Positions 764 to 62,291 of a DNA stretch of 64,000 nt are shown here, in pieces. A program made the position numbers and the translations under genes. The notes beneath the pieces are model-generated. The model was given only the letters and a program-made list of their open reading frames with translations, had not been told where the DNA came from and made no database searches. The DNA is from Candidatus Gastranaerophilales bacterium (GTDB lineage: Bacteria; Cyanobacteriota; Vampirovibrionia; Gastranaerophilales; Gastranaerophilaceae): the NCBI GenBank assembly GCA_944326425.1, contig CALVDX010000002.1, forward strand, positions 72,902-136,901, written 5' to 3'. Position 1 is the stretch's first letter, and each line of letters begins with the position of its first letter.

Positions 764-1489
764 CTAACCAAAAATCTAAAGCATGCCCCAATTCGGGTTC
801 TTGCATATCTGTTAATCGTTTATTCGGATCAAAATCTCCTGGATAACTTCTCCAATGAGCCTTGACAACTGTACCATCACTGCGTTTATATTCTCTGACA
901 TATACTTCACCTCCATTATCGGGACGATACCCCCCCCAAACAGTTCGTTATTATAACGACTATAACCCGCCAGATTATTTGGCATACTAGATTGCGATAC
1001 ATTATTTTTGTCAGTATTTAATTTAATACCTTCGCGTTCGCCTGTTTTTTCATTAAATCTTCTTTTATCATTTGGAGTTGTAATTAATTCACCTCTTCGC
1101 ATTTTTTTGTATATAATCCTTGATATTATATCATTGATTTCTTCTTTGTTTTTCTTTGTATAATAAAAAAACGGCTTCATTTCACGAGCAATTTCTCTGT
1201 CAATAGAATTATTCCATAAATCCATATTACGTTCACCTTGTGGAGCATTGGGGGTTTCATTTTCATGCATATCTCCCAAAATTTTAGCAACTTTTTCCCC
1301 ATAATTGTGCGCTAAATACCATTGCATATATACATGCTTAAATGCGTCTGCTTCGTTATTCCATGTAGAATGTTTACCAGTGCCTATTTCAAAACCATAT
1401 TTTCGTTGCGCTTTATATGTCGCATCTAAAACTTCTTTATTGAAATTTTCTCTCTGATAACTTATAAATTCATTAATTTTATTTTTCAT
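744..1489 (-). pseudogene. DAF-H / HE / MDLxNN-motif protein (DUF6973-like, from memory), frame-interrupted at a G8 tract; possibly phase-variable or a sequencing error
   Basis: The N-terminal frame (1489->) reads ...WNNEADAFKHVYMQWY...GDMHENE...RNMDLWNNS.... After the G8 tract the annotated frame ends at 812. The other frame reads GGEVYVREYKRSDGTVVKAHWRSYPG... to a stop at 744-746. That frame carries a motif shared with the proteins at 42765..43847 and 60736..62190. Confidence 0.55.
930..937 (-). repeat. Homopolymer G8 (C8 on the plus strand) inside a coding region
   Basis: Read directly from the sequence. A tract of 9 or 6 G would fuse the two conserved reading frames. Confidence 0.9.
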
Positions 1490-3964: not shown

Positions 3965-6169
3965 ATGGTTACCCAGATTGTGGATAATACCGCCATTGAT
4001 GTGGCATCGTTTATTAAGAATAACTATACACCTTACTATGGTGATGACAGTTTCTTAAGCGGCCCCACACAAAGAACAATGTACGTGTGGAGCAAAGTAA
4101 GTGAATTAATGAAGGAGGAGCACAAAAAAGGTGTTCTTGATGCTGATACTTCAACTCCTTCATCAATTACATCACACGGCGCGGGCTACATAGATAAGGA
4201 TAATGAACTTATCGTAGGCTTGCAGACAGACGCCCCGTTAAAACGTGCAATTATGCCAAACGGAGGCTACAGAATGGTTGAAGCTTCTTGTAAAGCGTAC
4301 GGTCTGCCTGTAGATGAAGAACTTAAGACTATTTACACAAAATACAGAAAAACTCACAATGACGGTGTATTTGATGTTTATACCGAAGCTATCAAAAAAT
4401 GCAGACACTCTGCAATTATTACAGGCCTGCCGGATGCTTACGGAAGGGGCAGAATTATCGGTGACTACAGACGTGTTGCACTTTACGGTATCGACAGACT
4501 TATTGAAGAAAAACAGAAAGACAAACTTTCAACCGAAAATATCCCGATGACTGAGGATAATATCAGGCTGAGAGAAGAATTGAGCGAACAAATCCGCGCG
4601 CTTAAAGATATGAAAGAAATGGCGCTCTCATACGGTATTGACATAAGCAAGCCGGCTGAAAGCTTCCGGGAGGCTGTTCAGTTTACATACTTCGGCTACC
4701 TTGCTGCAATCAAAGACCAGAATGGCGCGGCAATGTCACTGGGCAGAGTTTCTACATTCCTTGATATTTATTCGGAAAGAGATCTCAAATCAGGCAAAAT
4801 AACCGAAGAACAAGCGCAGGAAATAATGGACGATTTCATTATTAAATTGAGAATGGTACGTTTCTTAAGAACACCTGAATACAATGACCTGTTCAGCGGC
4901 GACCCGGTCTGGACAACTGAAAGCATCGGCGGCATGACAATGGACGGCAGACCGCTTGTTACAAAAAACTCTTTCAGAATGCTCCAAACACTAATAAACC
5001 TTGGCCCTGCTCCGGAACCGAATATGACAGTTCTCTGGAGTAAAGACCTGCCAAAAGGTTTCAAAGATTACTGTGCAAGAGTAAGTATTGAAACAAGCGC
5101 AATACAGTACGAAAACGACGACCTGATGCGTGAATCTTTCGGCGATGATTACGCAATTGCCTGCTGTGTTTCTCCGCTAATCATCGGTAAAGAAATGCAA
5201 TTCTTCGGCGCACGCGCAAACCTTGCCAAGGCACTTCTTTACACAATTAACGGCGGGGTTGATGAAAGAACCGGCGAAAAAGTTGCAGACTTTGAACCGA
5301 TTACAGACGAATACCTCGACTACGACACAGTAATGTCAAAGTTTGATAAGGTTATGGACTGGCTCGCGTACACTTATGTAAGCGCATTGAATATTATTCA
5401 CTATATGCACGACAAATATAACTACGAAAAAGCACAGCTTGCACTTATGGATTCAAATGCCGTACGCAAACTCGGATGCGGAATTGCCGGTTTCAGTGTT
5501 GTAACCGACTCACTCTCTGCAATTAAATATGCAAAAGTTAAAGTTATAAGAGAAAACGGAATTGCAAAACACTTTGAAATAGAAGGCGACTACCCGAAAT
5601 ACGGAAATAACGATGACAGAGCAGATTCTATCGGGGTTGATTTAGTTAACCGCTTTATGTCAAAGATTGAAAAAATCCAGACATACAGAGGCGCAATCCC
5701 GACACAATCAATCCTTACAATTACAAGTAACGTTGTGTACGGAAAGAAAACCGGTGACACACCGGACGGCAGAGTTGCGGGCGTTCCGTTCTCACCGGGA
5801 GCTAACCCGTTCAACGGCAGAGACTGCAAAGGCGCACTTGCATCACTTTGTTCTGTTGCAAAACTTCCGTTTAAGAATGCTAAAGACGGAATCTCAAACA
5901 CTTTCAGCATTCTGCCGGAAACATTGGGAAAATCAAGAGATGAACAAATCGGCAACCTGACCGGTATGATGGACGGATATTTTGAAAAAGGTGCACAGCA
6001 TTTGAATGTTAACGTTCTTAACCGCGAAACATTGCAGGATGCTATGGAACACCCTGAAAACTACCCGCAGTTGACAATCCGTGTGAGCGGATACGCTGTT
6101 AACTTCATTAAACTCACAAGAGAACAACAGCTTGATGTTATTAACAGAACCTTCCACTCTTCAATATAG
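3965..6169 (+). CDS. pflB: Pyruvate formate-lyase (glycyl radical enzyme)
   Basis: The active-site segment IACCVSP and the glycyl-radical motif RVSGYAVNF are present. The start is placed at ATG 3965, preceded by AAGGAGG (3953-3959). The tracked start at 3884 looks like an upstream over-extension. Confidence 0.95.
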
Positions 6170-7257: not shown

Positions 7258-7980
7258 ATGGAGATTTGCAATTATCACTCAATACAGACAATGGGGACAC
7301 TGGACGGCCCGGGTATCAGGTATGTACTATTTTTGCAGGGGTGTTGTTTCAGGTGTCTTTTCTGCCATAATCCTGATACATGGTTTGGAAAAGCAAACTC
7401 GATGACTACAGATGAATTCGTGCAGGATGTCTTGAAATACAAAGTATTCTATGACTCATCAGGAGGCGGTGTAACTGTTTCCGGCGGTGAACCATTATTA
7501 CAAATACCTTTTTTGATTGAAGCTTTTAGAAAACTTAAAGAATACAGTATCCACACAGCCATAGACACTTGCGGATATATTGATATTACTGATGAATTAA
7601 AAGAACTTATGAAGTATACAAACCTCGTTATGCTTGATATTAAACATCTTGATAATAATATACACAAAGAACTTACCGGCAAGCCGAATGATAAAGTCCT
7701 TCAATTCCTTGATTTTTTAAAAGAAAATGAGGTGCAAACAAGAATACGCCAGGTCTTAACCCCCGGATACACAATGGAGGATGAGTACATTACAAGCCTG
7801 ATAAAACTGCTGAAAAATTACAAATTGGAAAAAGTAGAACTCCTGCCCTATCATGACATGGCGCAGGATAAATACAAAAAACTCGGACTGGAATACAAGT
7901 TAAATGCCCGCATGCCTTCAAAGGAGGAAGTTGCATTAATTAAAGAAAAATTTATACAGGAAGGTTTTAATACAATATAA
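7258..7980 (+). CDS. pflA: Pyruvate formate-lyase activating enzyme (radical SAM)
   Basis: CX3CX2C cluster (GCCFRCLFCHNPDTW) and typical PflA length and motifs (GGVTVSGGEPLLQ). Confidence 0.9.
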   Translation: MEICNYHSIQTMGTLDGPGIRYVLFLQGCCFRCLFCHNPDTWFGKANSMTTDEFVQDVLKYKVFYDSSGGGVTVSGGEPLLQIPFLIEAFRKLKEYSIHTAIDTCGYIDITDELKELMKYTNLVMLDIKHLDNNIHKELTGKPNDKVLQFLDFLKENEVQTRIRQVLTPGYTMEDEYITSLIKLLKNYKLEKVELLPYHDMAQDKYKKLGLEYKLNARMPSKEEVALIKEKFIQEGFNTI

Positions 7981-41289: not shown

Positions 41290-41745
41290 TTAATTATTAT
41301 TTCTATTTGCACACACCTGCTCTATCTCTCTGCGCAGTTCTAAATTCTTTGCTTTCAGTTTTAATATTGGCGTTGAAAAAATTATAGTCATACAGAATAA
41401 AATAAACAGGTAAATAAAGTAAAAAGTTATCCAATCATTTTTCATATAAAACACTACTAAATAACATAATATCACAGCAACAATAAGAACATACAATATT
41501 CTATATTTTATCCAGTCAATTGCAAAACATAATTCTTTTGATACCAACATTGGAGCCGTTAGAAATATAATACCTATATTCAAAATACCTAAATCGGTAA
41601 ATGCAATTTTTACATCAGGAAATACGACAAATATATCACCCATGAATCCTAATGTTAATAAAATCACAACTATTTTAGCTATAATATTTACCCATTGACT
41701 AATCCGTTTAGAGAATTTCTCTTTTAAAACAATGTATTTGTACAA
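41290..41745 (-). CDS. Cassette A, small polytopic membrane protein (4 TM) with the conserved tail PILKLKAKNLELRRE
   Basis: Homologous to the C-terminal half of the 58833..59693 protein. A 33-nt stretch is identical at 41339-41371. Confidence 0.6.
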   Translation of the reverse strand: MYKYIVLKEKFSKRISQWVNIIAKIVVILLTLGFMGDIFVVFPDVKIAFTDLGILNIGIIFLTAPMLVSKELCFAIDWIKYRILYVLIVAVILCYLVVFYMKNDWITFYFIYLFILFCMTIIFSTPILKLKAKNLELRREIEQVCANRNNN

Positions 41746-42701
41746 GAGCCATAAAGGGAATAACTCTTTGTATAATCTTCTTCTGCTTCCTTATACAACT
41801 GCTTGCTCCGCTGATGCAGTTTGTATAACGGCAAACGAAAAATCATTACCAGTGCGATTATTATCATGGCAAATTTTACAACATACGTCATCGGGGCGGG
41901 AGTATCGTTTGTTGAAGTTATGGATACCACAACAGAACGATTAACATAATAAATCCCCGCGCCAAAGGCTATTAGAACGTAAACTATATGACGGTATAAA
42001 TAACGAATCAAATCGTTCAATTTTTGTGCGTTTGAAAGAGAAATATAGAATATTAAAAATATTATAACCGGCATTAAGTAATAAAAATCGGTTTCTAGCA
42101 ATAAATCATACCGGACACGGCAAAGATAATAAATAAATATCGGCAAAATAACCGGTAATATTTGGATAAATAAATTGTTGAAGTATTTGTTATTAATCAT
42201 AACTAATTTATTCATTTTGATACAATTTTCAGCCCGCCACAGGAAATATACAACTAAAAAAGCAACGTAATATATCCACATTGCCACAGCCGCAGCCATA
42301 AGCCAGAAGAGCAGCATTACATTTGAAAATAATGTATAAAATGCGTACGCAAAAATGAGCAGAATTAAAGGAAATAAAATAAAAAAAATACTTAATATTG
42401 TTTGTTTTTTTACAGAATATTTTATTTTAAAAAGACAGACTATTAATCTTCTATTAATAGTCAATTTTTTAATCAAAATACCTAATATTATAACAACAAA
42501 CGGAGATGCGAAAAACAACGGATAATGCAAAAAGAGTTTTACGAAATCAAAAATTGCGTTAACAATTCCCGCATTATCCGGAGCATCATAAAAAACAAAA
42601 AACATAGTTGCAAATGCGCCGGAAATAACTGATAATATAAACAGTAATATAGTTTCAAAATTTAAATATTCTTTTATTTTTATCATAATAAATTTAACCA
42701 A
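41724..42701 (-). CDS. Cassette A, polytopic membrane protein (~9 TM)
   Basis: Long hydrophobic ORF directly downstream of 42765..43847. The C-terminal tail PLYKLHQRSKQLYKEAEE is related to the tails of the other three cassette membrane proteins. Confidence 0.6.
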   Translation of the reverse strand: MVKFIMIKIKEYLNFETILLFILSVISGAFATMFFVFYDAPDNAGIVNAIFDFVKLFLHYPLFFASPFVVIILGILIKKLTINRRLIVCLFKIKYSVKKQTILSIFFILFPLILLIFAYAFYTLFSNVMLLFWLMAAAVAMWIYYVAFLVVYFLWRAENCIKMNKLVMINNKYFNNLFIQILPVILPIFIYYLCRVRYDLLLETDFYYLMPVIIFLIFYISLSNAQKLNDLIRYLYRHIVYVLIAFGAGIYYVNRSVVVSITSTNDTPAPMTYVVKFAMIIIALVMIFRLPLYKLHQRSKQLYKEAEEDYTKSYSLYGSCTNTLF

Positions 42702-42764
42702 TTAAAGACATATAGTATAATACTATATGTCTTTAATTTTTGCAATATATTTAATACATTTACA

Positions 42765-43847
42765 CTATTTCCAACCGGGAATTTTTGTCAACTCTTCTTT
42801 AGTATACTTTACATTAATTAAAAGAACATAATTAGTTAACATGCCTTTTTCCTGCTGAATATAGGCATTATTGTTAAAAACTGTCAACAGGTCATCACCC
42901 GTTCTATATTCAAAATCATAAAAGTCCGGAATTTGAAAATACAAATCACCATTAGTATCAATATATGGGCTAAAAATATGGGCTTCCCCAATAAGCGCAC
43001 CCAAATCAGGATCAGAATTATAAAACTTCAAACCGGGTATTGTTTTCCCTATTAACATACCATTTTTTATTTGTTCTTTATTTTCAACCAATAACCTGAT
43101 TAAAGCGTGATTTTGTTTTACACTTTTCACCAAAGAAGATTCTCTATCCGGTGATATGATTATACAATCATCGGTTATTTTATTATTTATTTGTTTTATA
43201 TGCTGCTTAATATTTTGATTTTTTATATCATTAACCCTAGCCACCGTAGTACCTTCATCAACATTTCGGCAACCTTGCAATGCATATTTGTAATAACGCA
43301 CTGCTGTAGGATATTTTTGAGCATAGCTGCCGGCACCGATACCTGTTTTAGCAGCTATAGCTTGAAACTTATACCCATCCGGACTTCTCAGTACATCCTC
43401 CTTAATATTACCCCCATTCTTTTCTTTAGATTCATTCTTAACAAGTTTTTCCGTTTTCAAATTTGCATCTGCTGCAAATCCTGTCGGCATCCCGTAACGT
43501 TTCTGTACATCTCTGTCCATATAATCATTTATCTCTTTCTCAAGTTCTGATTTGTATTCTTGGGGTGACTTCATTACAGGTTTATTTGGATTCCCGTGTC
43601 CCGCTTTTGAACGGTAATGCGCCCGTACTACTGTGCCATCCTGTCTTGTATATTCTTGAACAAAGACGACATCATCCGAGCTTGCAAGTTCCGAATTTCT
43701 TGGGAAACCGATTTTTCCGTACTGGTAGTCCAATGCCTTCTGGTAATATTTGCCCTCTTCATTATCCATCGCTATTACATCTTCGTGACTAAATATCCGG
43801 TTATCGTTCATAACCTCATTGATGTAATCTCTCAAACTATTTTGCAT
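42765..43847 (-). CDS. Cassette A, soluble protein with conserved N- and C-terminal modules and a variable core
   Basis: The N-terminal ~110 aa and C-terminal ~110 aa are collinear with the 60736..62190 protein. Carries VVFVQEYTRQDGTVVRAHYRS. SD GGGAGG. No signal peptide. Confidence 0.65.
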   Translation of the reverse strand: MQNSLRDYINEVMNDNRIFSHEDVIAMDNEEGKYYQKALDYQYGKIGFPRNSELASSDDVVFVQEYTRQDGTVVRAHYRSKAGHGNPNKPVMKSPQEYKSELEKEINDYMDRDVQKRYGMPTGFAADANLKTEKLVKNESKEKNGGNIKEDVLRSPDGYKFQAIAAKTGIGAGSYAQKYPTAVRYYKYALQGCRNVDEGTTVARVNDIKNQNIKQHIKQINNKITDDCIIISPDRESSLVKSVKQNHALIRLLVENKEQIKNGMLIGKTIPGLKFYNSDPDLGALIGEAHIFSPYIDTNGDLYFQIPDFYDFEYRTGDDLLTVFNNNAYIQQEKGMLTNYVLLINVKYTKEELTKIPGWK

Positions 43848-44087
43848 TTCAACACCTCCCTTTTACAAAATAATATAAATACGTATTACGTATTGTAAAT
43901 TATTTTTATTATTTATCAATACTATATCTTATAAGTACAGATATTAATACCATAGTTCAATACCAAATTACCATTTAGGATAAAAATAATTAACGACAAG
44001 GCAATTCATATCAATACAAATTATACAATACCTGTACAGGGTAAATATCCGGATAAATTATCCGGTTAATACAACAAACAGTTTCAA

Positions 44088-45478: not shown

Positions 45479-46069
45479 TTACTTGTTTATATTCTCCATA
45501 TTCTTTTTCATACAGAACTGAACAAGAGTCATCTTGTCAATATTGCTCAAGCACGTAAACCTGCCGGATATAGTATAAACACCGGCATCATTTTTTTCAA
45601 CTCTTATAAGTTTGTATTTACAGCTGACGCTCAAATCTTTTTCAAGCTGCAATGTAACATCATATTCATCTTCAATATTAATATTTTCTTTTGTAGAAAG
45701 TTTCATCCCGCCGGCAGAAATATCCAGAGTTCTTGCCTTATGAATAGTATTACCTGATTTAAGTTCAATATCGGAAAGGAACGTTATCCGGGTAAATTTA
45801 CGGCGCTGTAGAAATCTGTGCTTAATAGGATTTGCAATAGAAATTATATTATTATTCAATTCTTTAATATAAGATTCAAAGTATAAATATCCATTATCCG
45901 TAAGAGAATAAAAATCACAAATGTGATTTTGGATGAGTCCTTTAGGAGTATATTTCAACTGCATAGTAAACCCTTCCATATCGACATTCAGGACTTTACC
46001 CTTATTTGAATTCTTAAAATCCTGCGGAACAATATCAACAATCTGATCTTTTTTTATAAGTTCTCTCAT
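45479..46069 (-). CDS. PilZ-domain protein (YcgR-like architecture)
   Basis: RRKFTR...DISAGG motifs in the C-terminal half. Located immediately downstream of flhA. Confidence 0.7.
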   Translation of the reverse strand: MRELIKKDQIVDIVPQDFKNSNKGKVLNVDMEGFTMQLKYTPKGLIQNHICDFYSLTDNGYLYFESYIKELNNNIISIANPIKHRFLQRRKFTRITFLSDIELKSGNTIHKARTLDISAGGMKLSTKENINIEDEYDVTLQLEKDLSVSCKYKLIRVEKNDAGVYTISGRFTCLSNIDKMTLVQFCMKKNMENINK

Positions 46070-46090
46070 AACTATCCTTTCTGTTTTGGA

Positions 46091-48178
46091 TTAAAGTTTT
46101 ACAAGCCCGACAGACTTTGCTTTAACGTTTTGTGTAATTTCATTATATGACATAATAGAAATTTGCGGGTAGGTTCTTTCAATGAGTCTTCTGAATGCAA
46201 GCCTGATTGGAGAAGAACAGAGTACAATCGGCTGGTTACCGGTTTGCGTAATAGCTTTTTCAAGTTCAACATTAAGCCTGTCAAGCAGCTTCCTTGTAAA
46301 ATCAGGGTCAAGCGTGAGACTCTGTCCGTCAGGACTGACACCTTTTGCAATCGTACTTTCAATATCCGGTGCAAGTGTGATTGCCAGTAATTCACCCGTA
46401 TCTGAAAGATTCTGACTGCAAATATTTCTTGCAAGCGCCTGCCGGACGTGTTCTGTAAGGAAATCAAGATTTTTACTTGTCTTAGAGTACAAACTCATCG
46501 TTTCTAAAATAGTTTTCATATCACGAACTGCAACTCCTTCTTTAAGAAGATTTTGCATAACCATTTGCACCTCTGCGACAGAAATATCTTTCATAACATC
46601 CGTTACATACTCCTCAGAAACCTCTTTCTTAAGATTTTCAAGCAGTTGTTGAACATCAGCCCGTGACAAGATTTCCGCAGCATTACGCTTGATAACTTCG
46701 GTTAAATGGGTTGAAATAACTGCAGAAGCACTTACAACCGTATAGCCTGCAAGCTCTGCCATATCTTTATCTTTTTCTTCAATCCAGAGAGCAGGAAGCC
46801 CGAATGCCGGTTCTATAGCATGAATACCGTTCAATACGAGGGTCTCGCGGGTTTCGCCGGCCGACATTGCAAGATATCTGTCTGAATATACTTCTCCCGT
46901 CTCTAAAGGTACACCTTTTAGTTTTATTTGATATGTATTTGGCGCAAGCTGCAAATTATCTCTTACCCTGATTGAAGGAAGTACAATACCCAAATCTAAC
47001 GCAGTCTGACGCCTGATTTGCGCAATACGTTCAAGCAAATCACCACCAAGCTCAATATTTAATAATGGCACAATTCGGTATCCGACTTCAATTTCAATAG
47101 TATCAACAGTAAGAAGTTCCATAATACTTTCTTTTGTGGCCTTTTTATCGCGTTTGCCAAGCTTTTTACGCGCATCCTCTTCTTTTTGAGCAGCTTCCTG
47201 AATTTCTTTTGATTGTTTTGTATCTTTTGACTTTTTGTATGCAAAATACCCTGTCAAAAATCCTATACCAAGGAATGGTACCGTAGGCATTCCGGGTACA
47301 AGCCCCATAAATCCTAAAAGTCCCGCGACAACACCAAGAATTTTAGGATCAGAAAACATCTCTGTCTTAATGTCCTCAGAGAGCGGTTCATCTTTACCGG
47401 TTGCTCTTGATACAATAAGACCCGTTGCCGTAGAAATTAAAAGCGCAGGGACTTGCGACACAAGCCCGTCGCCAACCGTCAATATTGTAAAAGTGTTAAG
47501 AGCCGTCTGGAACGGCATTTTTAACTGTATCATACCAATAATCAGGCCGCCAACAATATTTACAATCGTAATAATAATACCGGCAGTAGCATCACCTTTT
47601 ACAAACTTGGAAGCACCATCCATTGTCCCGTAGAAATCTGTTTCCCGTTCCAATTTACGCCGTCTTTCCTTGGCCTGATCCTCATTAATCAGTCCGGCAT
47701 TCAAGTCCGCATCAATACTTAACTGTTTACCGGGCATTTTGTCCAATGTAAACCTTGCAGATACTTCCGCAACTCTTGTTGCACCTCCGGTAATAACCAT
47801 AAAATTAATTAATACCAAAATGACGAAAATAACAAAACCAACAACATAATTCCCGCCGACAACAAATTCTCCAAACGACTGAATTACATTTCCGGCCTCG
47901 CCATGCAGGAGAATCAGCCTTGTAGAACTAACGTTCAAACCAAGCCTGAACAGCGTTGCAATAAGAAGCACCGTAGGGAATGATGAATAATCAAGCGGTT
48001 CTTTTGTATACAAACACACAAGAAGGATAACCACTGCAAGTGATATGTTAATTGTTAACAATATATCTAAAAGCGGAGCAGGAAGAGGTATAACCATCAT
48101 GCACACAATAACAACCAGACCTATTGCAAGGACTATGTCATTATTAGCAAGCAATGATGACAGCTTTTTCATATCCAT
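46091..48178 (-). CDS. flhA: Flagellar biosynthesis protein FlhA
   Basis: Typical N-terminal TM domain, FHIPEP region and C-terminal cytoplasmic domain. Confidence 0.95.
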   Translation of the reverse strand: MDMKKLSSLLANNDIVLAIGLVVIVCMMVIPLPAPLLDILLTINISLAVVILLVCLYTKEPLDYSSFPTVLLIATLFRLGLNVSSTRLILLHGEAGNVIQSFGEFVVGGNYVVGFVIFVILVLINFMVITGGATRVAEVSARFTLDKMPGKQLSIDADLNAGLINEDQAKERRRKLERETDFYGTMDGASKFVKGDATAGIIITIVNIVGGLIIGMIQLKMPFQTALNTFTILTVGDGLVSQVPALLISTATGLIVSRATGKDEPLSEDIKTEMFSDPKILGVVAGLLGFMGLVPGMPTVPFLGIGFLTGYFAYKKSKDTKQSKEIQEAAQKEEDARKKLGKRDKKATKESIMELLTVDTIEIEVGYRIVPLLNIELGGDLLERIAQIRRQTALDLGIVLPSIRVRDNLQLAPNTYQIKLKGVPLETGEVYSDRYLAMSAGETRETLVLNGIHAIEPAFGLPALWIEEKDKDMAELAGYTVVSASAVISTHLTEVIKRNAAEILSRADVQQLLENLKKEVSEEYVTDVMKDISVAEVQMVMQNLLKEGVAVRDMKTILETMSLYSKTSKNLDFLTEHVRQALARNICSQNLSDTGELLAITLAPDIESTIAKGVSPDGQSLTLDPDFTRKLLDRLNVELEKAITQTGNQPIVLCSSPIRLAFRRLIERTYPQISIMSYNEITQNVKAKSVGLVKL

Positions 48179-49260
48179 TAGTTTTTCTTCCTCCTGCTGT
48201 ATACGTAAGCAAGAATTTCCGCAACAGCAACATACAAGTCTGATGGTATTATACCATCAATTGGCACAGAATTGTAGAGGGCGCGTGCAACCGGACGGTT
48301 TTCAACTATAGGAACATTATGCTGTTTTGCTATCTCACGTATCTGAAACGCAACATAATCAACACCTTTAGCCACCACCATAGGAGCCGGAGCCCGTGTT
48401 TTATCATACACAATTGCAACCGCATAATGTGTAGGATTTGTTACAACTACATCGGCATTAGGAACCTGCGCCATCATACGACGTTTTGCCATCTGCATCT
48501 GGGTAGAACGAATACGGGATTTGATTTTAGGATCCCCTTCCGTATCTTTCAACTCGTCCTTTACCTCCTGTTTTGTCATTTTTATTGATTTTTCATACTC
48601 ATAATCCTGATATTTTTTATCAAGGAAACCTAATATAATCATTGCAATGCACATATTAATAAGCATCTTAAACATTATTGCGCCAATAACATCAAACGAG
48701 GCAGCAAGCGGCTGGCCAATCATTCCATAGATCTTATCAATATCATTCATCAGGGTTACAAGTCCGCATACTGTTACTATTACGAGCTTTAAAATAGATT
48801 TTGCAAACTCAACCATGGTTCTTGGTTCAAATGGGTTAAAAAGTCGCTTGGCATTATTTATAATCCTTCTGGGGGATAAATTTTCCGGATCAAATTTTGC
48901 TCTGCCGGGTGCGAAAACATGACCAACTTCCATTCTTATAATGACAACAGCAGCAACCATAAGCAATACTAAAAGCGGAATAATAATCGATCCAGCCGTC
49001 TGGGCATAGGGCAAAAGCATTGCGAGTAAGTCATCCGTATTCATTTCGTCAGGATGAATATGTGTCAGGGCAAGCCTTATCATTTCTTCAACGCTGGTAA
49101 GAATTGGATTTGCAAAAACACTTAACAAAACAACTGCAATAGTAACAACAAAGGCAGAAGCCATATCCCTGCTTTTGGATACGTTACCTTTTTCCCGTTC
49201 TTTATTTCGCCGCCGCGGGGTGGCGGATTCTGTTCTTTCTGCTGCCTGTTCGTTTGCCAT
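48178..49260 (-). CDS. flhB: Flagellar biosynthesis protein FlhB
   Basis: NPTH autocleavage motif (VVVTNPTHYAVA). Confidence 0.95.
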   Translation of the reverse strand: MANEQAAERTESATPRRRNKEREKGNVSKSRDMASAFVVTIAVVLLSVFANPILTSVEEMIRLALTHIHPDEMNTDDLLAMLLPYAQTAGSIIIPLLVLLMVAAVVIIRMEVGHVFAPGRAKFDPENLSPRRIINNAKRLFNPFEPRTMVEFAKSILKLVIVTVCGLVTLMNDIDKIYGMIGQPLAASFDVIGAIMFKMLINMCIAMIILGFLDKKYQDYEYEKSIKMTKQEVKDELKDTEGDPKIKSRIRSTQMQMAKRRMMAQVPNADVVVTNPTHYAVAIVYDKTRAPAPMVVAKGVDYVAFQIREIAKQHNVPIVENRPVARALYNSVPIDGIIPSDLYVAVAEILAYVYSRRKKN

Positions 49261-49263
49261 ACC

Positions 49264-50043
49264 CTAAAATACCGCCATTACCTGTGACAAAATACGTTCT
49301 GTAATCACTTCTATATGTTCCGAAATTGCACGTACAAACATCAATGATAAAAGCATTCCTAAATAAAGTTTAAGCGGAAGAGAGACCATAAAAATGTTCA
49401 ACTGCGGCATCATTTTTGAAGTGAAGCCAAGCAGCACATCCGTCATAAACAGAATTGCAAAAATCGGAATTATAAGCTCCATACCAACAGAAAATATCTG
49501 GGAGGAAATAACAATTATTTGCTCTACCATTTGCGGGGAAAAATCGAACGTAAACCCGACCGGCAAAGAAATAAAACTGTGATAAAGTGCCGAAAATAGT
49601 AAATGATGCCCGTTAACACACAAAAAAATCATGCCGGCAAGCAACACAAATGATTGTGTCAACACCGGTGAAGCACTGCCGGATAGCGGATCTAGCGCAC
49701 TGCTTACAGAGAGCCCCATTTGAGTTGAGAACATATTTGCACCCATTTCAACACCTACAAGAATTACATTTGCACAATATCCGATTGCAAACCCTATTAG
49801 GAATTCTTTTATCAGAATAAGTGTAAGCTCCGGAACTGCAGTAGGAATAACAAACCCGCTTGCGGCTTTAACCATCGGAAATAAAACAAAAGCCACAGCT
49901 GCAGCAAACCAGACCTTAACCTGTGCAGGAATAGGATAAGTTGAAAAAAACGGCGCAGAAGACAAAAGTCCTGACAGGCGCGTTAATATTGCCATAAACA
50001 GAATTAAATTTGTCGGTGTTAGTATTGTTCCTAAATTATACAT
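49264..50043 (-). CDS. fliR: Flagellar biosynthesis protein FliR
   Basis: Position and polytopic profile within fliPQR-flhBA. Confidence 0.85.
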   Translation of the reverse strand: MYNLGTILTPTNLILFMAILTRLSGLLSSAPFFSTYPIPAQVKVWFAAAVAFVLFPMVKAASGFVIPTAVPELTLILIKEFLIGFAIGYCANVILVGVEMGANMFSTQMGLSVSSALDPLSGSASPVLTQSFVLLAGMIFLCVNGHHLLFSALYHSFISLPVGFTFDFSPQMVEQIIVISSQIFSVGMELIIPIFAILFMTDVLLGFTSKMMPQLNIFMVSLPLKLYLGMLLSLMFVRAISEHIEVITERILSQVMAVF

Positions 50044-50321
50044 TAAACTCCGCCTGCCGTTAGTTGTGGAATTACATCCATAAATTCATTCACATAAGAT
50101 ATAAAAAGATTAACCATCCATGGCATAAGAACTATTAAAATAGCTATACCGCCGATTATTTTAGGAACAAACGTTAAGGTTGATTCCTGAATTTGTGTTA
50201 CTGTTTGAAAAACACTTATCGCAAGCCCTATTACAACCCCCGATAAAAGAATCGGAACTGAAATTTCTAAGGTTAGAACAAACATCTTCTGCATTAAAGT
50301 AATAATAACTTCCTGTTCCAT
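50043..50321 (-). CDS. fliQ: Flagellar biosynthesis protein FliQ
   Basis: An ~90-aa two-TM protein at the typical position. Confidence 0.85.
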   Translation of the reverse strand: MEQEVIITLMQKMFVLTLEISVPILLSGVVIGLAISVFQTVTQIQESTLTFVPKIIGGIAILIVLMPWMVNLFISYVNEFMDVIPQLTAGGV

Positions 50322-50323
50322 AT

Positions 50324-51082
50324 CTACCTCGCAAACCCTTCAACCAACGACTTAACAAGCAGATACCACCCGTCTACCATAACAAACATAATCAGTTTAA
50401 AAGGAAGAGCAATCATTGTTGGCGGCAGGAACATCATACCCATTGCAACCAGAATACTTGATACAACTATATCAATAACCAAAAACGGAAGATAAATAAC
50501 AAATCCGATAGTAAAAGCTATTTTTAATTCACTTAAAATGAATGCCGGAATAAGTACATAAGTCGGAATATCGTTTGTATCCTTAGGTTTTTCAAGCTTT
50601 GCCATCCTGACAAACAGGGCAAGCTCTTTATCGCTGGTCTGTTTAAACATAAAATCACGAACAGGCTGAATTCCCCTGTCAAGCGCCGCCTGCTGCGTAA
50701 TCTGGTTTTGCATATACGGTTGAAGTGCTTCATTATTAATCTTAGTAAAAACCGGCGACATTATGAAAAAAGTTAAAATTATCGCAAGGCTTGTCAAAAC
50801 CTGGTTAGGCGGAAGCGTTGTTACCCCGAGCGCCTGCCTTAAAAGGGAAAGAACTATTACAATCCGTACAAAAGATGTCGTCATAATAAGAATACTCGGC
50901 GCAAGCGATAATATTGTCAACCAGATAAGGATTTGCATCCCGTTTGTAAAATCCTGCGGAGTATTTGCCGGCTGCATACCGATATTTATATTCGGGAACG
51001 ACATTGCGCAAAACGACGGCAAAGCGCCAAGCGCAATAATCCCGATAGCCAGCATTATCTTTTTCAATATACCAAACTTCAT
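50324..51082 (-). CDS. fliP: Flagellar biosynthesis protein FliP
   Basis: SFVRIVIVLSLLRQALG and the following conserved regions. Confidence 0.9.
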   Translation of the reverse strand: MKFGILKKIMLAIGIIALGALPSFCAMSFPNINIGMQPANTPQDFTNGMQILIWLTILSLAPSILIMTTSFVRIVIVLSLLRQALGVTTLPPNQVLTSLAIILTFFIMSPVFTKINNEALQPYMQNQITQQAALDRGIQPVRDFMFKQTSDKELALFVRMAKLEKPKDTNDIPTYVLIPAFILSELKIAFTIGFVIYLPFLVIDIVVSSILVAMGMMFLPPTMIALPFKLIMFVMVDGWYLLVKSLVEGFAR

Positions 51083-57710: not shown

Positions 57711-58181
57711 ATGCATATTACACCGGTTAATACAAATACAAAAAAAGACAATCCGGCTTTTGGCGCAAAAATAGGAAGCCGTCTGAAGATATATGCACAG
57801 AAAGACCCCAGATTTGAAAATTTTATGAAAGAATTTTCTAAATGGGGCGACTCTAATACTGTAGTCGATATCTATAACACCCAGGTAAACGGCAAAACAA
57901 AGTACATGCTGAGACTGGAAAATCAGGTTCTTGATCGTACAAACGTCAAAATAACAAAAGATGATGCTGTTTTTATGCCGGCAAAATTAATAGATACGTT
58001 TTTCAACCTTACAGAAAAATCAATCCTATGGGCTGAGGACAGACTGTTTATAGAAGTAAAAAAATTCCTGAGTAACTCCCCTGCACGTTATAGAGAATGG
58101 TACGCTAATATATTAAGACAACAGGAACAAAAAGGAAAAACATTTGACCATGACACAGCAAAACGTTTCCAAAGGTTATAA
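57711..58181 (+). CDS. Small hypothetical protein, N-terminal motif family
   Basis: MHITPVNTNTKKDNPAFGAK. A paralog of the proteins at 58212 and 52313. Confidence 0.5.
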   Translation: MHITPVNTNTKKDNPAFGAKIGSRLKIYAQKDPRFENFMKEFSKWGDSNTVVDIYNTQVNGKTKYMLRLENQVLDRTNVKITKDDAVFMPAKLIDTFFNLTEKSILWAEDRLFIEVKKFLSNSPARYREWYANILRQQEQKGKTFDHDTAKRFQRL

Positions 58182-58211: not shown

Positions 58212-58721
58212 ATGAAAATCAATACTATCAGCACAAATTACAATACCCCGGGATTCGGCGCAAAATTAAACGGAAAGTTAACCTTTGACCTATCTACAGA
58301 ATTATTTGCACACAAGCTTGGGAAATACGGTCAAGCCTATGATGCACACTGCAAAAAACTTGCCTCTGCAGGCTCGGAAACATCAGAATTGTATCTTTCA
58401 AAAAACGGAGGCGGAACAATAGGGTTTAATCTTAAAAACCCATCAATCACAACCGCATACGAAATTCCGATGGGGGAAGCAGAACCGGGACACCTGCTGG
58501 AAACCTTCTTCAAAATTAAACCGGAAGATATTATTAAGGCAGAAGAAAAAATGAAATCATTAATCAATGAAAAAATCAGCGGACTTATAAAAGCGGCTCA
58601 GTCAGATAAAAATGTTTATAATACCGTTACAAAAGCAGGCAAAGACAGCAATGTTGAAAAAGCCGTCAAAAACCTTGATGACAATACAATCATAGACCTG
58701 TATTATTCAACAAAGAAATAA
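58212..58721 (+). CDS. Small hypothetical protein, N-terminal motif family
   Basis: MKINTISTNYNTPGFGAK, with AAGGAG upstream. Confidence 0.5.
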   Translation: MKINTISTNYNTPGFGAKLNGKLTFDLSTELFAHKLGKYGQAYDAHCKKLASAGSETSELYLSKNGGGTIGFNLKNPSITTAYEIPMGEAEPGHLLETFFKIKPEDIIKAEEKMKSLINEKISGLIKAAQSDKNVYNTVTKAGKDSNVEKAVKNLDDNTIIDLYYSTKK

Positions 58722-58832: not shown

Positions 58833-59693
58833 TTATGTGTTTTTATTTTGATACATTTCTTCAACTTCCCTGCGTAACTCTAAATTCTTTGCTTTCAGTT
58901 TTAATATTGGCTCAAACAGAATCAATGTTACTCCTAATAGCACTGATATATATATCACATAAAACATTACCCAATCATTTTTACAGCCGTATATTAACAA
59001 GCAAAGCAATATTATCCAAACTAATAATACATATAATATCTTCTGCTTTAATTTCGCAACTATAGGCACAGCCTTAGGAACAATCAACAGAGGAAAAGTC
59101 ATTAATATTATTATAAAGTTAAAAACCATATTAAATAATAAATATTTTCTATCAAGCATTTCAAACATTAAACCGCACAGAATAAAAGAAAAGAACAATA
59201 CAATACATATAAACACAAAATTTAAAAAATTTATTCCCTTATAACAATGCTTTTTTACACTGCTTTCATATTGCCAATAAGCAAATAGTGATATTATCTG
59301 TATTACAAACGGTATATTAAATAAAAGCATCACAATTATTCCGCTTAAACTACCACACCCTAAAAATAAAAAGGGTAATAAGATTAAAAGTACTATATAA
59401 AATTTATATCTCGCCTTTTTATTATTTTTTAGATAATAAATTTTACTAAGAAAACCGTGATTTAAACTAAAATTAAATATATTTATATACATTGAATACA
59501 AACAAATAAATAACGAAAGCCAGACAAATACAAAAATTGAAACAGAAGCCCAAACAGACTCTTGTTTATCACAACTGTCAACTCCGAATGCAAACAATAA
59601 CAATTCTAGCATGCCGCTCCATAGCACTATTGCATTTAATAAGATTAATAATAGTATTTCTATTATTGGTACTTTTTTTAAGATATTAAGCAT
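58833..59693 (-). CDS. Cassette B, polytopic membrane protein (~8 TM) with the tail PILKLKAKNLELRRE
   Basis: Its C-terminal half is homologous to 41290..41745. A 33-nt stretch is identical at 58879-58911. Confidence 0.6.
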   Translation of the reverse strand: MLNILKKVPIIEILLLILLNAIVLWSGMLELLLFAFGVDSCDKQESVWASVSIFVFVWLSLFICLYSMYINIFNFSLNHGFLSKIYYLKNNKKARYKFYIVLLILLPFLFLGCGSLSGIIVMLLFNIPFVIQIISLFAYWQYESSVKKHCYKGINFLNFVFICIVLFFSFILCGLMFEMLDRKYLLFNMVFNFIIILMTFPLLIVPKAVPIVAKLKQKILYVLLVWIILLCLLIYGCKNDWVMFYVIYISVLLGVTLILFEPILKLKAKNLELRREVEEMYQNKNT

Positions 59694-59752
59694 ACAATTG
59701 CTCCGGTTGGTAGTATATTAACATATACCATCAACTTTTTACTAATCTATCA

Positions 59753-60682
59753 TTACCACAAATAGCCCTGCTTTAACTCCTCTCTTGCATATTCATTTTT
59801 AAAACGCAGCTTTCGCATCGGTTCATAAAGTATAAGCAATACAATATACATCAAGACAAATGCGTAGCAGGTCAAATAAAATATCGTTTTACCTTGAAAT
59901 CCATAGCCTGCAAAAACTAATCCAATCAACAATATTAACGGTATAATAAAATATTTTTTCGATAGACTAACAATTTTAGTCATTCCGGAGGATACAGATA
60001 ATGGCACCAGAAAAAGTATTGTAACAAAGTATAACACCCAAACAAAAACTAACCCTTCATTCTCAATTTCCATATTATGCACCAAGTAAACAGGCAGCAT
60101 TGATACCCCTATTAAAAGCAGCACCTGAATTATGATATTATTTAATACAGTCCAAAGTACCAGTTTGATTTTTTGAGACAAATGTCCTTTTATCCCCCAA
60201 ACCTCATAAATTAACATTATCGGAAATGCAGGTGTATAAAAGTATGACATTATAGCGACAACAATCGCATATAATTGTTTTACCAACACAGTTTTTGCAA
60301 TAAATACATTATCATTACCGGAAACTATTGCAGAATATACAAGAAAAACCTGCAAAAATGACATTAAAAAGTATAACAACCACCTTATTTTAGATTGTTT
60401 TTTCAATTTATAGGCAAAACCTAAAAGCTTTTTATCAGAAGTTAATAAAAAAACACACAAATACGCAGCCGCAACAAAAAATCCCAAATTAGGAAATGTC
60501 ATTAAAGCTGCCAAATCGTCCGGTCGTTTTAAAGAATCTTCTGCATAAGCTACCCACATGTAAAAATATAACATGTACACCAATAACATAAACAAACTAA
60601 TTAAAACCAACAAAACATACTCGATTATTGATCTATTTTTAATAGTTGCTAACATTTGTTCTTTTAATTTAATAAAAGGCAT
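59753..60682 (-). CDS. Cassette B, polytopic membrane protein (~9 TM)
   Basis: Occupies the same position as 41724..42701. Tail: EPMRKLRFKNEYAREE. Confidence 0.6.
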   Translation of the reverse strand: MPFIKLKEQMLATIKNRSIIEYVLLVLISLFMLLVYMLYFYMWVAYAEDSLKRPDDLAALMTFPNLGFFVAAAYLCVFLLTSDKKLLGFAYKLKKQSKIRWLLYFLMSFLQVFLVYSAIVSGNDNVFIAKTVLVKQLYAIVVAIMSYFYTPAFPIMLIYEVWGIKGHLSQKIKLVLWTVLNNIIIQVLLLIGVSMLPVYLVHNMEIENEGLVFVWVLYFVTILFLVPLSVSSGMTKIVSLSKKYFIIPLILLIGLVFAGYGFQGKTIFYLTCYAFVLMYIVLLILYEPMRKLRFKNEYAREELKQGYLW

Positions 60683-60735
60683 ACGATTATTTTATCATAC
60701 GCCTTTTAATATTTCAACAGTTTTAATATAATTTC

Positions 60736-62190
60736 TTATTTCCAGCCGGGCAAGTTCGAGAGTTCTTCTTTTGTATATGTAATATTCAATAGCAATACAT
60801 AATTTGTCAATCTGCCAATTAATTGTTGTATATTCGCAGAATTATTCATTATAGAAAATAAAACAGCATCTTTACTCCATTTTCTTCTTTCAAAATCATA
60901 GTAATCAGGTATTTGCAGATGTAAATTACCACTGTTATCAATATAAGCATTATACACATGTGTCTCCCCAAGCAGAGTATCTAAGTCTCTGTCATTATAG
61001 AAACTAATATCGTTAACTATCTTACCTTTGAAATTTCCACTTTTTATCGCATTTTGATTTTGAATGATAAACTCTTTTAGACGATTACTGTTTTTCACCT
61101 CTTTTATAAGAGGCGATTGTGGTCTGGGCATAACTACAAGCGTATTTTCATTTATTGTATTGTTCATTTTAAATAAATGCCTTTTTAATATAGGATTACT
61201 AACGGACATCATATAAGTATATTCATTATCCAAATCTTTTTTAATATATTCTTCCGGTTCAAGAGATAGTCTATAATAATTTGCTGATAATGGGCGATTA
61301 CGATTAATCAGTTTAAAACTACTTAAAGTTTTATTTTTTGCAATAGCTGCTTGTATAGGACTCAATAAAATTTCAGGATACAATGTCACAATATTTTTAA
61401 CTTTATCTTTAAACCCTAAATCATTTTTATACAAAAATAATTTATCCATTATTATAGACTTAACATCTTCTGCTGTTATTTGCTTATTTGGCAGTACAGC
61501 TTTTATGTTTCTATACTTATGATCCCTACTATATTCTCCGGCCAAATCATCCAAGACTCCTAAATACCTTCGCTCCGGCAATTCAATATTTTTTATCTCC
61601 ATCTCCCTGCCGGTATAGGGTTTGGAAATTGGTTTAGGTTGGGGCGATGGTTTTATATTTGGTTGTATATTCACTGCAGGTATTTCATTACTTACATCGT
61701 GCGACATTTCTATCTGACCTGTCAGCATTCCGTTTGATGGGTATAACGGGGCTTGATCAGGCTCTATATCACCAGTATCCGGAGCCACATACTCTAATTC
61801 CGTTTCAGGAAGTATATCTATAAGCTCCTGCAGGTAGTCTATATCTTCATCCGCTCTATTTACCCCTGCCCCGTAACGCTCCTGGACATCTCTATCCATA
61901 TAATCATTTATCTCTTTTTCAAGTTCTGATTTGTATTCTTGAGGTGACTTCATTACAGGTTTATCAGGGGCTGCATGTCCCGCCTTTGAGCGGTAATGCG
62001 CCCTTACTACCGTTCCGTCCTGTCTTGTATATTCTTGAACAAAAACAACATCTGATGAGTTTGCACGTTCAGCATTCATTGGAAATCCTATCTTTCCATA
62101 CTGATAATCAAGAGCTTTTTGATAGTACTTTCCTTCTTCATTATCCATCGCTAGTACATCTTCATAGCTGAATATTCTGTTGTCATTCAT
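60736..62190 (-). CDS. Cassette B, soluble protein with conserved N- and C-terminal modules and a longer variable core
   Basis: Collinear with the 42765..43847 protein at both ends. An SD-preceded 11-codon ORF (62225..62190) ends in TAATG, overlapping this ATG. Confidence 0.65.
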   Translation of the reverse strand: MNDNRIFSYEDVLAMDNEEGKYYQKALDYQYGKIGFPMNAERANSSDVVFVQEYTRQDGTVVRAHYRSKAGHAAPDKPVMKSPQEYKSELEKEINDYMDRDVQERYGAGVNRADEDIDYLQELIDILPETELEYVAPDTGDIEPDQAPLYPSNGMLTGQIEMSHDVSNEIPAVNIQPNIKPSPQPKPISKPYTGREMEIKNIELPERRYLGVLDDLAGEYSRDHKYRNIKAVLPNKQITAEDVKSIIMDKLFLYKNDLGFKDKVKNIVTLYPEILLSPIQAAIAKNKTLSSFKLINRNRPLSANYYRLSLEPEEYIKKDLDNEYTYMMSVSNPILKRHLFKMNNTINENTLVVMPRPQSPLIKEVKNSNRLKEFIIQNQNAIKSGNFKGKIVNDISFYNDRDLDTLLGETHVYNAYIDNSGNLHLQIPDYYDFERRKWSKDAVLFSIMNNSANIQQLIGRLTNYVLLLNITYTKEELSNLPGWK

Positions 62191-62291
62191 TACGTCGTTG
62201 CGTAATCCCTTAAACTTTTTGTCATTTTAAAATCTCCTTAAATAATATTTTGTACGACTTTTGTATTACTAATTTTTACATAATAATAGCA

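Follow-up and report, generated by a model that had tools for sequence, protein, structure and literature searches.

Introduction

Bacteriocins of the colicin M (ColM) family (PF14859) are modular toxins of gamma- and betaproteobacteria that degrade lipid II, the undecaprenyl-pyrophosphate-linked precursor of peptidoglycan, and together with the immunity proteins Cmi, PmiA, BmiA and PmiC they form the ColM set to which we compare the system described here. Those ColM immunity proteins that are integral to the membrane have 3, 4 or 6 transmembrane (TM) helices and almost no sequence conservation (PMC5821083), and the signature of the toxins reads D226-K-Y-D-F-N-A-S-T-H-R, in which D226 (a metal ligand), Y228, D229, H235 and R236 are each essential (PMC8469651). 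Polymorphic toxin families (sensu Zhang/Aravind 2012; Jamet & Nassif 2015), in turn, are defined by one conserved N-terminal domain that is combined with alternative toxin domains (definition quoted in PMC5576092). Among them, the MuF toxins of temperate phages (Jamet et al. 2017) join a conserved N-terminal region to variable C-terminal toxin domains, are followed by a putative immunity gene and are defined by their site, which is directly behind a portal gene or close to a terminase gene, prophage remnants included (PMC5576092). Here, we describe two copies (A and B) of a cassette encoding one soluble protein and two membrane proteins within a stretch of 64,000 nucleotides of a Candidatus Gastranaerophilales bacterium (positions 72,902 to 136,901 of contig CALVDX010000002.1 in GenBank assembly GCA_944326425.1), which we refer to in full as the window. 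Judged from the sequences and from predicted structures, each cassette is probably a phage-linked polymorphic toxin-immunity module of an undescribed family that is MuF-like in its genomic position.

Gastranaerophilales are non-photosynthetic relatives of cyanobacteria that live as uncultured bacteria in the human and animal gut and whose ecology is almost undescribed. We found no paper in the library searched that ties Gastranaerophilales or Melainabacteria to colicin M or that describes a system of the present kind, and the cassettes, if read correctly, would be the first toxin-immunity system and thus the first system of interbacterial competition for this lineage. The polymorphic toxin-immunity module is already known as a kind of system; what is new are the family of the N-terminal domain, a ColM-like variant that lacks the His-Arg pair, a family of large polytopic candidate immunity proteins, the host lineage and the link to terminase or portal genes that are isolated and conserved.

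Conserved and variable domains of the soluble proteins

The open reading frame (ORF) maps bear out the two minus-strand cassettes and the gene order that a preliminary description of the window had given (Table 1). Its view that the soluble proteins carry no signal peptide also held up, with no N-terminal hydrophobic signal apparent in either sequence on direct reading, as did the near-identity of their N-termini, which have 96 of 107 residues (90%) in common. The remainder of the proteins had to be redrawn: C-terminal homology, previously put at about 110 aa, extends over ca. 225 aa at 37% identity (E 8e-45), and since the C-terminal ~220 aa are homologous between A and B, the supposedly unrelated and hypervariable core is only a linker of variable length between two homologous domains (hereafter N-domain and C-domain). 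This linker is short in A and ca. 125-155 aa longer, Pro-rich and probably disordered in B (alignment A1). The earlier argument from a hypervariable interior between conserved ends therefore has to be replaced by one in which variation falls on the linker and on the C-domain in its entirety.

The core of the N-domain is a helix-helix-beta-hairpin unit of ~85 aa with the motif VVYVxxYTRxDGTxVxAHYRSKP (alignment A6), for which we found no match in Pfam, in PHROGs or, by profile search, among PDB sequences. Its coding segment of 300 nt is the only DNA repeat common to both cassettes, in direct orientation and at 82% nucleotide identity. Between A and B, the N-domain shows a proportion of synonymous differences (pS) of 0.69, i.e., saturated synonymous sites, at a nonsynonymous divergence (dN) of 0.059 and a dN/dS of ~0.03, and the C-domain has diverged about 10x faster (dN 0.57). 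Saturated synonymous sites together with low dN indicate that A and B are ancient paralogs with very strong purifying selection on their N-domain. The saturation also led us to reject recent gene conversion as the origin of the N-domain identity.

A word-indexed search among 5.8 billion proteins returned 33 clusters related to the soluble proteins, and an exhaustive profile search of 1.84 billion representatives returned 761 proteins, 373 of which scored at E<=1e-10. Splitting the profile into separate hidden Markov models for the N- and C-domain revealed that, among the top 174 of these 761 proteins, 97 carry both domains, 39 only the N-domain and 38 only the C-domain. Full-length proteins with only the N-domain end in PF15644 Gln_amidase/Tox-PL1 (papain-fold toxin 1, a glutamine deamidase) or in Peptidase_M23, and others end in C-termini of no known family. 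An N-domain joined to alternative toxin domains is the architecture of a polymorphic toxin, and if this assignment is correct, the N-domain would define a new N-terminal polymorphic-toxin family of >700 proteins that is named in no current database. The genomes with matches include a metagenome-assembled genome (MAG) of Candidatus Gastranaerophilales with at least four copies as well as an uncultured gut bacterium, and there are at least four intact copies per genome at non-prophage sites.

The preliminary description had recognised no characterised family in any of the six cassette proteins, and we indeed found nothing significant for them in Pfam, NCBIfam, PHROGs or PADLOC. Weak matches to Sigma_reg_N and to TonB Pro-rich regions were dismissed as compositional, and a phmmer comparison of soluble protein B to PDB sequences returned only designed beta-propeller proteins over 27 residues, a result that we judged to be spurious.

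Resemblance of the C-domain to colicin M

Based on a diverse alignment of 36 sequences, AlphaFold2 (AF2) modelled the C-domain with a pLDDT of 97.4 and a pTM of 0.91, and its pLDDT also exceeds 90 in the model of full-length soluble protein A. When the C-domain model was compared to 350,542 PDB chains using Foldseek, the 12 best matches all belonged to the ColM family and were followed by unrelated noise. They comprise PaeM (4g76; E 0.011, prob 0.91), pectocin M2, pectocin M1, syringacin M, colicin M and its mutants, and the C-terminal domain (CTD) of BtpeA, an effector of the type VI secretion system (T6SS) of Bacteroides fragilis. The full-length model gave the same ColM-family pattern, and a library of viral structures that served as specificity control gave heterogeneous noise with no coherent family. 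The best global structural match of the C-domain is the BtpeA CTD in its pair with BtpiA (PDB 9jdi), likewise from a gut bacterium, with 200 aligned columns, a TMq of 0.41 and 12% sequence identity. Unlike the proteins described here, BtpeA is delivered by the T6SS together with PAAR and adaptor proteins (PMC13402684), and no enzymatic function was found for it in the literature on this effector.

Conservation within the C-domain centres on a D-x-Y-D-F motif. D308 of soluble protein A is the sole fully invariant residue in 105 homologs and hence the only invariant acidic one, and the same homologs conserve Y310 to 88%, D311 to 87% (with Asn in the rest), F312 to 87% and Q332 to 99%. We built a ColM alignment from the matches to a ColM query, which returned PF14859 proteins at 99% identity, and hhalign placed the DxYDF of the C-domain in register with ColM D226-K-Y-D-F, with an alignment that stays colinear over the next helix and the terminal strand up to the C-terminal ends of both. 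As in ColM bacteriocins, we see modular proteins that lack a signal peptide and have their (here candidate) catalytic domain at the C-terminus, a D-x-Y-D-F some 45-50 residues from that terminus followed by a helix and the terminal strand, and fold matches whose sole coherent group is the ColM family.

Membrane proteins linked to the toxin candidates

The four membrane ORFs of the window are all polytopic and share a C-terminal helix of the form P-x-x-K-L-[KR]-x-[KR]-N...RRE, the K and L of which are invariant in 14 family members. This charged helix had already been reported, together with strong divergence everywhere else; the common tail stands, but relatedness reaches beyond it, and the membrane proteins are full-length paralogs of one family, with BLASTP E-values of 1e-7 to 1e-5 between types that are transitively linked (alignment A4). 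A profile search for this family returned only 10 close relatives, none of them with a Pfam domain. The 151-aa ORF of cassette A aligns at 91% identity with residues 135-285 of an intact 285-aa gene at a related locus (L003), i.e., to its 3' half, which identifies it as a truncated remnant that, by this alignment, was apparently left by recombination or deletion. The 325-aa membrane protein A has 48-50% identical orthologs in L001 and L004, where they are orphans at the ends of arrays, and the 286-aa membrane protein B has an 85%-identical ortholog upstream of the toxin gene in L001.

Homologs of the soluble protein that usually lack adjacent membrane genes had been named as an observation that would speak against a coupled system. 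There are none among the genes of the ColM-like type with enough flanking sequence: all 22 (20 from related loci plus the two of the window) have a multi-TM ORF next to them. In loci of the Gastranaerophilales type, this ORF belongs to the family of 285-340 aa, in L008 and L014 it encodes a 240-aa protein with 3 TM, and distant relatives have membrane proteins of 150-160 aa with 3-5 TM (four in a row in L017). At L027, the TM gene (162 aa) runs on the other strand than the toxin gene, and the Gln_amidase toxin of the same locus is followed instead by a small non-polytopic protein. The type of the first membrane gene also tracks the subtype of the toxin candidate before it: B-like proteins are followed by type II, proteins that end in "PEEW" by type I and soluble protein A by type III. 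For the B type, the type II gene follows in all three genomes concerned (the window, L001 at 80% identity and L002 at 41%).

This linkage and covariation are what one would expect of cognate immunity proteins, a function that we infer for the membrane proteins by analogy. Like those of ColM systems, the candidate immunity proteins are integral to the cytoplasmic membrane and share essentially no sequence between types (PMC5821083). If the assignment is correct, they would form a family of polytopic membrane immunity proteins that is both new and large, and their co-varying set would be good material for studying the mechanism of ColM-type immunity.

A soluble enzyme encoded next to membrane proteins could also be a decayed phage lysis cassette made of an endolysin-like protein and holin-like partners, and some copies do adjoin phage genes and have cell-wall-directed domains without signal peptides as in canonical endolysins. 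We consider this origin highly improbable, however, given that holins have 1-4 TM and fall under ~150 aa, whereas the membrane proteins here have 286-325 aa with ~7-9 TM and occur in arrays. In addition, the dN/dS of ~0.03 of the N-domain across ancient paralogs is incompatible with decay, the window cassettes sit between housekeeping genes, the intact multiple copies per genome lie outside of prophages and the C-domain lacks any coherent match among viral structures.

Cassette divergence between conserved flanks

At one recurrent locus with the gene order DUF1353-TerL-toxin-TM-flgF (TerL being the terminase large subunit), TerL is 88% and the FlgF paralogs are 93-97% identical between MAGs, compared to 46-53% for the toxin candidates, mostly owed to the N-domain, and 27-43% for the membrane gene. 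The two sites of the window show the same pattern relative to the related Gastranaerophilales MAG mentioned above, with KdsC-like, GT2, HPF and PFOR at 94-99% identity, the C-domains at 33-64% and the membrane genes at 41-50%. That MAG has a B-like cassette at the other of these two sites; its three genes are 81%, 80% and 85% identical to those of cassette B and stand in a different order. Further rearrangements include an N-domain-less toxin ORF of 341 aa between membrane genes in L004, four membrane genes in a row in L001 and two tandem cassettes in L013.

We propose that the cassettes diversify through divergence and through recombinational replacement of the C-domain together with the immunity gene while the N-domain is held constant, and that additional membrane paralogs would serve as orphan immunities against the toxins of neighbours. 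Contact-dependent inhibition (CDI; CdiA-CT/CdiI), Rhs and MafB systems similarly have arrays of N-terminally truncated orphan toxin modules with an immunity gene, extra immunity genes and module replacement that apparently proceeds through a conserved upstream coding region. Unlike them, the present family has an unrelated N-terminal domain and no secretion context of the type V (T5SS), T6SS or Maf kind.

These patterns leave hardly any room for the idea that the cassettes encode lineage-specific housekeeping proteins of the envelope with no role in conflict. Intact ORFs and the location of several copies beside flagellar genes would fit such proteins, but not their extreme divergence relative to the flanks at syntenic loci, copy numbers and gene orders that differ between close genomes, truncated and orphan copies, or the fusion of the N-domain to known toxin domains.

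Phage genes beside related cassettes

In four MAGs (L003, L006, L010 and L013), the toxin gene directly follows an intact 433-aa TerL gene (Terminase_3; PHROG terminase E 1e-40). Upstream of this gene lie phage-like genes including a DUF1353 gene resembling tail assembly chaperones and a gene for a 904-aa tail-fibre-like protein. In at least four MAGs, TerL is found at the same syntenic position of the chromosome, just upstream of the toxin array and of flagellar rod genes, and is under purifying selection with saturated synonymous sites, dN ~0.08 and omega <=0.04, similar to flgF. Its conservation at a syntenic site under purifying selection suggests a domesticated phage-derived element and not a decaying prophage. 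At two metagenome loci (L027 and L025), an N-domain toxin gene comes directly after a portal gene of the SU10 type (Pfam 47 bits at a cut-off of 30; phrog_332 E 4e-30). L027 also has a 94-aa ORF at 7433-7717, a second copy of the portal gene's 3' end (…FEQKGVDNPERFLG.GVN…) just ahead of a second toxin gene, which indicates that recombination through this end serves to add cassettes.

The location of homologs just downstream of a portal gene or beside a terminase gene is shared with MuF toxins, as is the combination of a conserved N-terminal region with variable C-terminal domains and a putative immunity gene after the toxin. In the clade of clusters P0031-33, a CxxC...PHPNCKC segment of the linker scores 24.6 bits to Phage_Mu_F, below the cut-off of 29.6 bits, and the Pfam scan gave no match of the window proteins to a MuF-superfamily domain (PF04233, PF06152). 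Several features set the family apart from MuF toxins: wherever a MuF-like segment is present, the N-domain precedes it, most copies (among them both of the window) are scattered over the chromosome at a distance from phage genes, the C-terminal domains are directed at the envelope whereas those of MuF toxins are mostly cytosolic nucleases and related enzymes, and the candidate immunity proteins are large and polytopic where the MuF counterparts are ORFs of <150 aa.

The same neighbourhoods raise the question whether the soluble proteins are virion components instead. Phage ejection proteins such as T7 gp16 and phi29 gp13 provide the precedent: the N-domain would bring the protein into the phage head, close to the portal, and upon injection of the genome its ColM-like, M23 or papain-like domain would breach the envelope locally. 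The chromosomal membrane proteins would then serve superinfection exclusion by neutralising phage proteins that enter the cell. The position of homologs directly after portal or terminase genes is consistent with this, and alternative C-domains like M23 or the papain-fold amidase are typical of virion-associated lysins and, as with the ColM-like domain, all target the cell wall or its precursor. We nevertheless regard ejection proteins as a decidedly unlikely explanation, since the window cassettes and most Gastranaerophilales copies are multi-copy and outside of recognisable prophages and since co-varying membrane genes, N-domain-less orphan modules and immunity-like arrays mark toxin-immunity systems as opposed to structural phage genes. 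Moreover, neither a tblastn search of 50,697 phage genomes (INPHARED) nor a pattern scan of IMG/VR returned any homolog.

A related thought that keeps the soluble proteins as toxins is that their N-domain might be the loading signal of a domesticated, phage-derived and head-containing particle, for which the dispersed cassettes (including the two in the window) would provide interchangeable, envelope-attacking cargo. This proposal builds on the lone TerL that is kept upstream of the toxin array across species-level divergence and, likewise, on the lone SU10-type portal in a distant lineage, and we would call it unlikely though attractive. Such a particle would be a counterpart of gene transfer agents or tailocins that delivers toxins, by a route distinct from all numbered secretion systems.

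Proposed mode of action

The toxin-immunity reading draws on N-domain fusions, the ColM-type relatives, hypervariable C-domains and membrane genes, orphan modules and the linkage of toxin and membrane ORFs. The soluble protein would thereby be a toxin composed of an N-terminal handle, a disordered linker of variable length that acts as flexible spacer, and a C-domain of ~210 aa that is very remotely related to the ColM catalytic domain. As a trafficking or loading handle, a role that we infer for it, the N-domain (~85-110 aa) would direct export or loading, either into a phage-derived particle or for release by lysis as in the case of colicins. At the outer (i.e., periplasmic) face of the cytoplasmic membrane of a target cell, the C-domain may then attack lipid II or a related envelope precursor in a metal-dependent reaction in which D308 of the D-x-Y-D-F motif is the key residue. 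Meanwhile, the polytopic proteins encoded downstream would provide cognate immunity in the cytoplasmic membrane of the producer as PmiA, BmiA and PmiC do against ColM-type bacteriocins.

Several observations weigh against this interpretation, beginning with the C-domain. The 12 fold matches are weak (E 0.011-0.26, TM-score <=0.41, rmsd 8-10 A), hhalign gave a probability of only 2.4% against the ColM alignment (pairwise E 0.02), a profile search of PDB sequences with the C-domain found nothing and, unlike ColM bacteriocins, the toxin candidates do not match Pfam ColM (PF14859) even at E<=1. The H235-R236 pair of ColM has no conserved counterpart, neither in the two window proteins nor among the homologs, where these positions vary (DD, SK, RT, GG, KD, etc.; alignments A1 and A2), and inactivity is presumed for ColM-like domains whose motifs are altered. 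Similarly, the N-domain, modelled by AF2 at low confidence (pLDDT ~55), is a conserved unit of 85-110 aa where ColM has a TonB-box translocation domain and a receptor-binding domain, and no signal peptide, recognised secretion domain or nearby secretion system that would account for delivery is found for the window cassettes. The membrane proteins (~300 aa with 7-9 TM) are far larger than the known ColM immunity proteins with their 3-6 TM helices or single anchor; the counterparts in distant relatives have 150 aa with 4 TM. Finally, neither cassette of the window adjoins portal or terminase genes, and no TerL was found within its 64 kb.

In view of the weak hhalign and fold scores, the failure to match Pfam ColM and the missing His-Arg pair, we grade down our claims about fold and target and do not file the C-domain as a member of PF14859. 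A remote ColM-like fold still seems likely from the structural models, and for cleavage of lipid II, which is argued by analogy to ColM, the balance is about even. The hosts in question are Gastranaerophilales and other uncultured gut bacteria, in contrast to the proteobacterial hosts of ColM, and the homologs are linked to phage genes; if these assignments are true, the ColM fold and possibly lipid II cleavage would extend far beyond Proteobacteria, would be phage-linked and would be workable without the His-Arg pair. The recurrent adjacency to isolated terminase and portal genes under purifying selection would, on this reading, also make the delivery problem of MuF-type toxins directly testable. 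Enzymes that target lipid II are also of interest as antibacterial leads.

The preliminary description had placed the cassettes among conflict systems in general, with toxin-immunity pairs, bacteriocin-immunity pairs and abortive infection as candidates. The N-domain fusions, the structural resemblance to ColM, hypervariability, orphans and linkage support the former two, and nothing specific was found for abortive infection. In an anti-phage module, the soluble protein would act from within the cytoplasm as an effector that destroys lipid I or II upon infection, with the membrane proteins as sensors or regulators. Defence systems can share an N-domain across different effector domains, too, and the cassettes are hypervariable, multi-copy accessory genes amid conserved housekeeping genes, with a cassette GC content of 31% that falls below the window average of 36.7%. 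Yet the six proteins match none of 5,027 PADLOC-DB v2 models at E<=1, no sensor, NTPase or nuclease component is present, and arrays of membrane genes that lack an effector fit orphan immunity better. Furthermore, the substrates of M23 and ColM-type domains are periplasmic, and ColM does not harm its producers while in the cytoplasm (PMC8469651). Abortive infection or another form of anti-phage defence is thus very unlikely. Taken together, none of the rival explanations accounts for co-varying partners, orphans, dispersal and toxin-domain fusions at once as well as a toxin-immunity module does.

Layout of the cassettes and associated features

The positions of all cassette components are listed in Table 1 together with those of a third, related locus in the window and of the TerL genes at related loci.

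Table 1. Coordinates of cassette features, of the third toxin-related locus and of terminase genes next to homologous cassettes. Positions are those of the window unless a related locus is named.
Feature	Position	Strand	Basis or remark
Cassette A	41290-43847	minus	ORF map
Candidate toxin gene A, 360 aa (N-domain, short linker, ColM-like C-domain)	42765-43847	minus	ORF map, AF2; cluster P0012
N-domain of toxin A, aa 1-119	43491-43847	minus	90% identity to B
Beta-hairpin motif VVFVQEYTRQDGTVVRAHYRS in N-domain of toxin A	43608-43670	minus	
ColM-like C-domain of toxin A, aa ~146-360	42765-43412	minus	AF2 and fold search
Candidate catalytic motif D308-F-Y310-D311-F312 of toxin A	42912-42926	minus	Conservation and hhalign
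Hairpin, perfect 18-bp stem, in the 63-nt gap between toxin A and membrane gene	42700-42738	minus	
Membrane protein A, 325 aa, ~7-9 TM, type III	41724-42701	minus	Candidate immunity
151-aa membrane ORF A, 3' half of type I gene	41290-41745	minus	Overlaps end of 325-aa gene
Cassette B	58833-62190	minus	ORF map
Candidate toxin gene B, 484 aa	60736-62190	minus	Identical cluster P0001
N-domain of toxin B	61870-62190	minus	
Pro-rich linker of toxin B	~61405-61869	minus	
ColM-like C-domain of toxin B	60736-61404	minus	
DYYDF motif in C-domain of toxin B	60892-60906	minus	
First membrane protein B, 309 aa, type II	59753-60682	minus	Candidate immunity
Second membrane protein B, 286 aa, type I	58833-59693	minus	Candidate additional or orphan immunity
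Frameshifted remnant of the 12 conserved codons at the start of toxin B (MTKSLRDY.NDV)	62191-62226	minus	DNA alignment
Third, degenerate or mosaic toxin-related locus	494-1489	minus	
DUF6973 ORF of third locus	812-1489	minus	Pfam E 7e-15
N-domain hairpin motif EVYVREYKRSDGTVVKAHWRSYP of third locus	747-947		Another frame than DUF6973 ORF
89-aa ORF of third locus	494-763		Matches C-terminus of P0045 (N-domain protein with C-terminal domain of no known family)
Divergent 132-aa ORF with 4 TM beside third locus	1520-1918	plus	
TerL, 433 aa, L003	182-1483		
TerL, 433 aa, L006	6674-7975		
TerL, 433 aa, L010	2387-3688		
TerL, 433 aa, L013	204-1505		

Upstream of the two cassettes lie a decarboxylase-like gene and PFOR, respectively, and both cassettes sit between housekeeping genes. 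Compared to A and the homologs, the extension of toxin gene B is out of frame owing to a 1-nt gap in the DNA alignment, and toxin B therefore starts at an internal Met, unless the gap is an assembly error. A near-perfect inverted repeat with 32-nt arms at 42687-42751 falls precisely into the gap that separates toxin gene A from its membrane gene, and no counterpart was found in cassette B; the hairpin could be an attenuator or terminator that sets the ratio of toxin to immunity protein. The third locus, taken together with the adjacent membrane ORF (494-1918), looks frameshifted or mosaic.

Next to cassette B, the plus strand encodes tandem paralogous small soluble proteins of 156 and 169 aa (57711-58181 and 58212-58721) with N-termini of the form M..N....PAFGAK(I/L), which matched no database family. 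The same pair stands beside the cassette B site in L002 at 79-80% identity, compared to 98% for PFOR across the cassette.

Flagellar genes are found near several of the cassettes. Just upstream of cassette A and on the same strand, the window contains fliP, fliR, flhB and flhA together with a PilZ gene (45479-51082, minus strand). At the TerL site, flgF, flgG, flgB and flgC come just downstream of the cassette (L003, L006, L012 and L013), and the cassettes of L008 and L014 adjoin flagellar genes as well, in L008 a cluster for the P/L-ring and rod. Overall, flagellar genes adjoin about three of six distinct insertion sites, an arrangement that could be coincidental or could stem from an insertion hotspot or a functional link. 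On this positional basis, we considered flagellar type III export and, given the few sites, keep it only as a lead.

The tandem toxin genes of L013, which is the ENA ERZ24773551 contig with the TerL-flgF site, each contain an identical insertion of ~165 nt inside the N-domain coding sequence (~1668-1822 and ~5516-5670). It falls between …YYQKAL and DEQYGKIGFP and splits the genes into an ORF of 44 aa and one of 516 or 483 aa. The insertion is GC-richer than its surroundings and rich in hairpins, including AGTTTGCG...TGCAAACT and CAGGGCTGTGTGC-TATCCC-GCGCACAGCCCTG; no credible family was found for it in Rfam, and the window lacks it. It could be a miniature inverted-repeat transposable element (MITE) or an intron-like element that targets the conserved DNA of the N-domain, and the proteins of clusters P0015 and P0029 bear an N-terminal scar like that of the L013 insertion.

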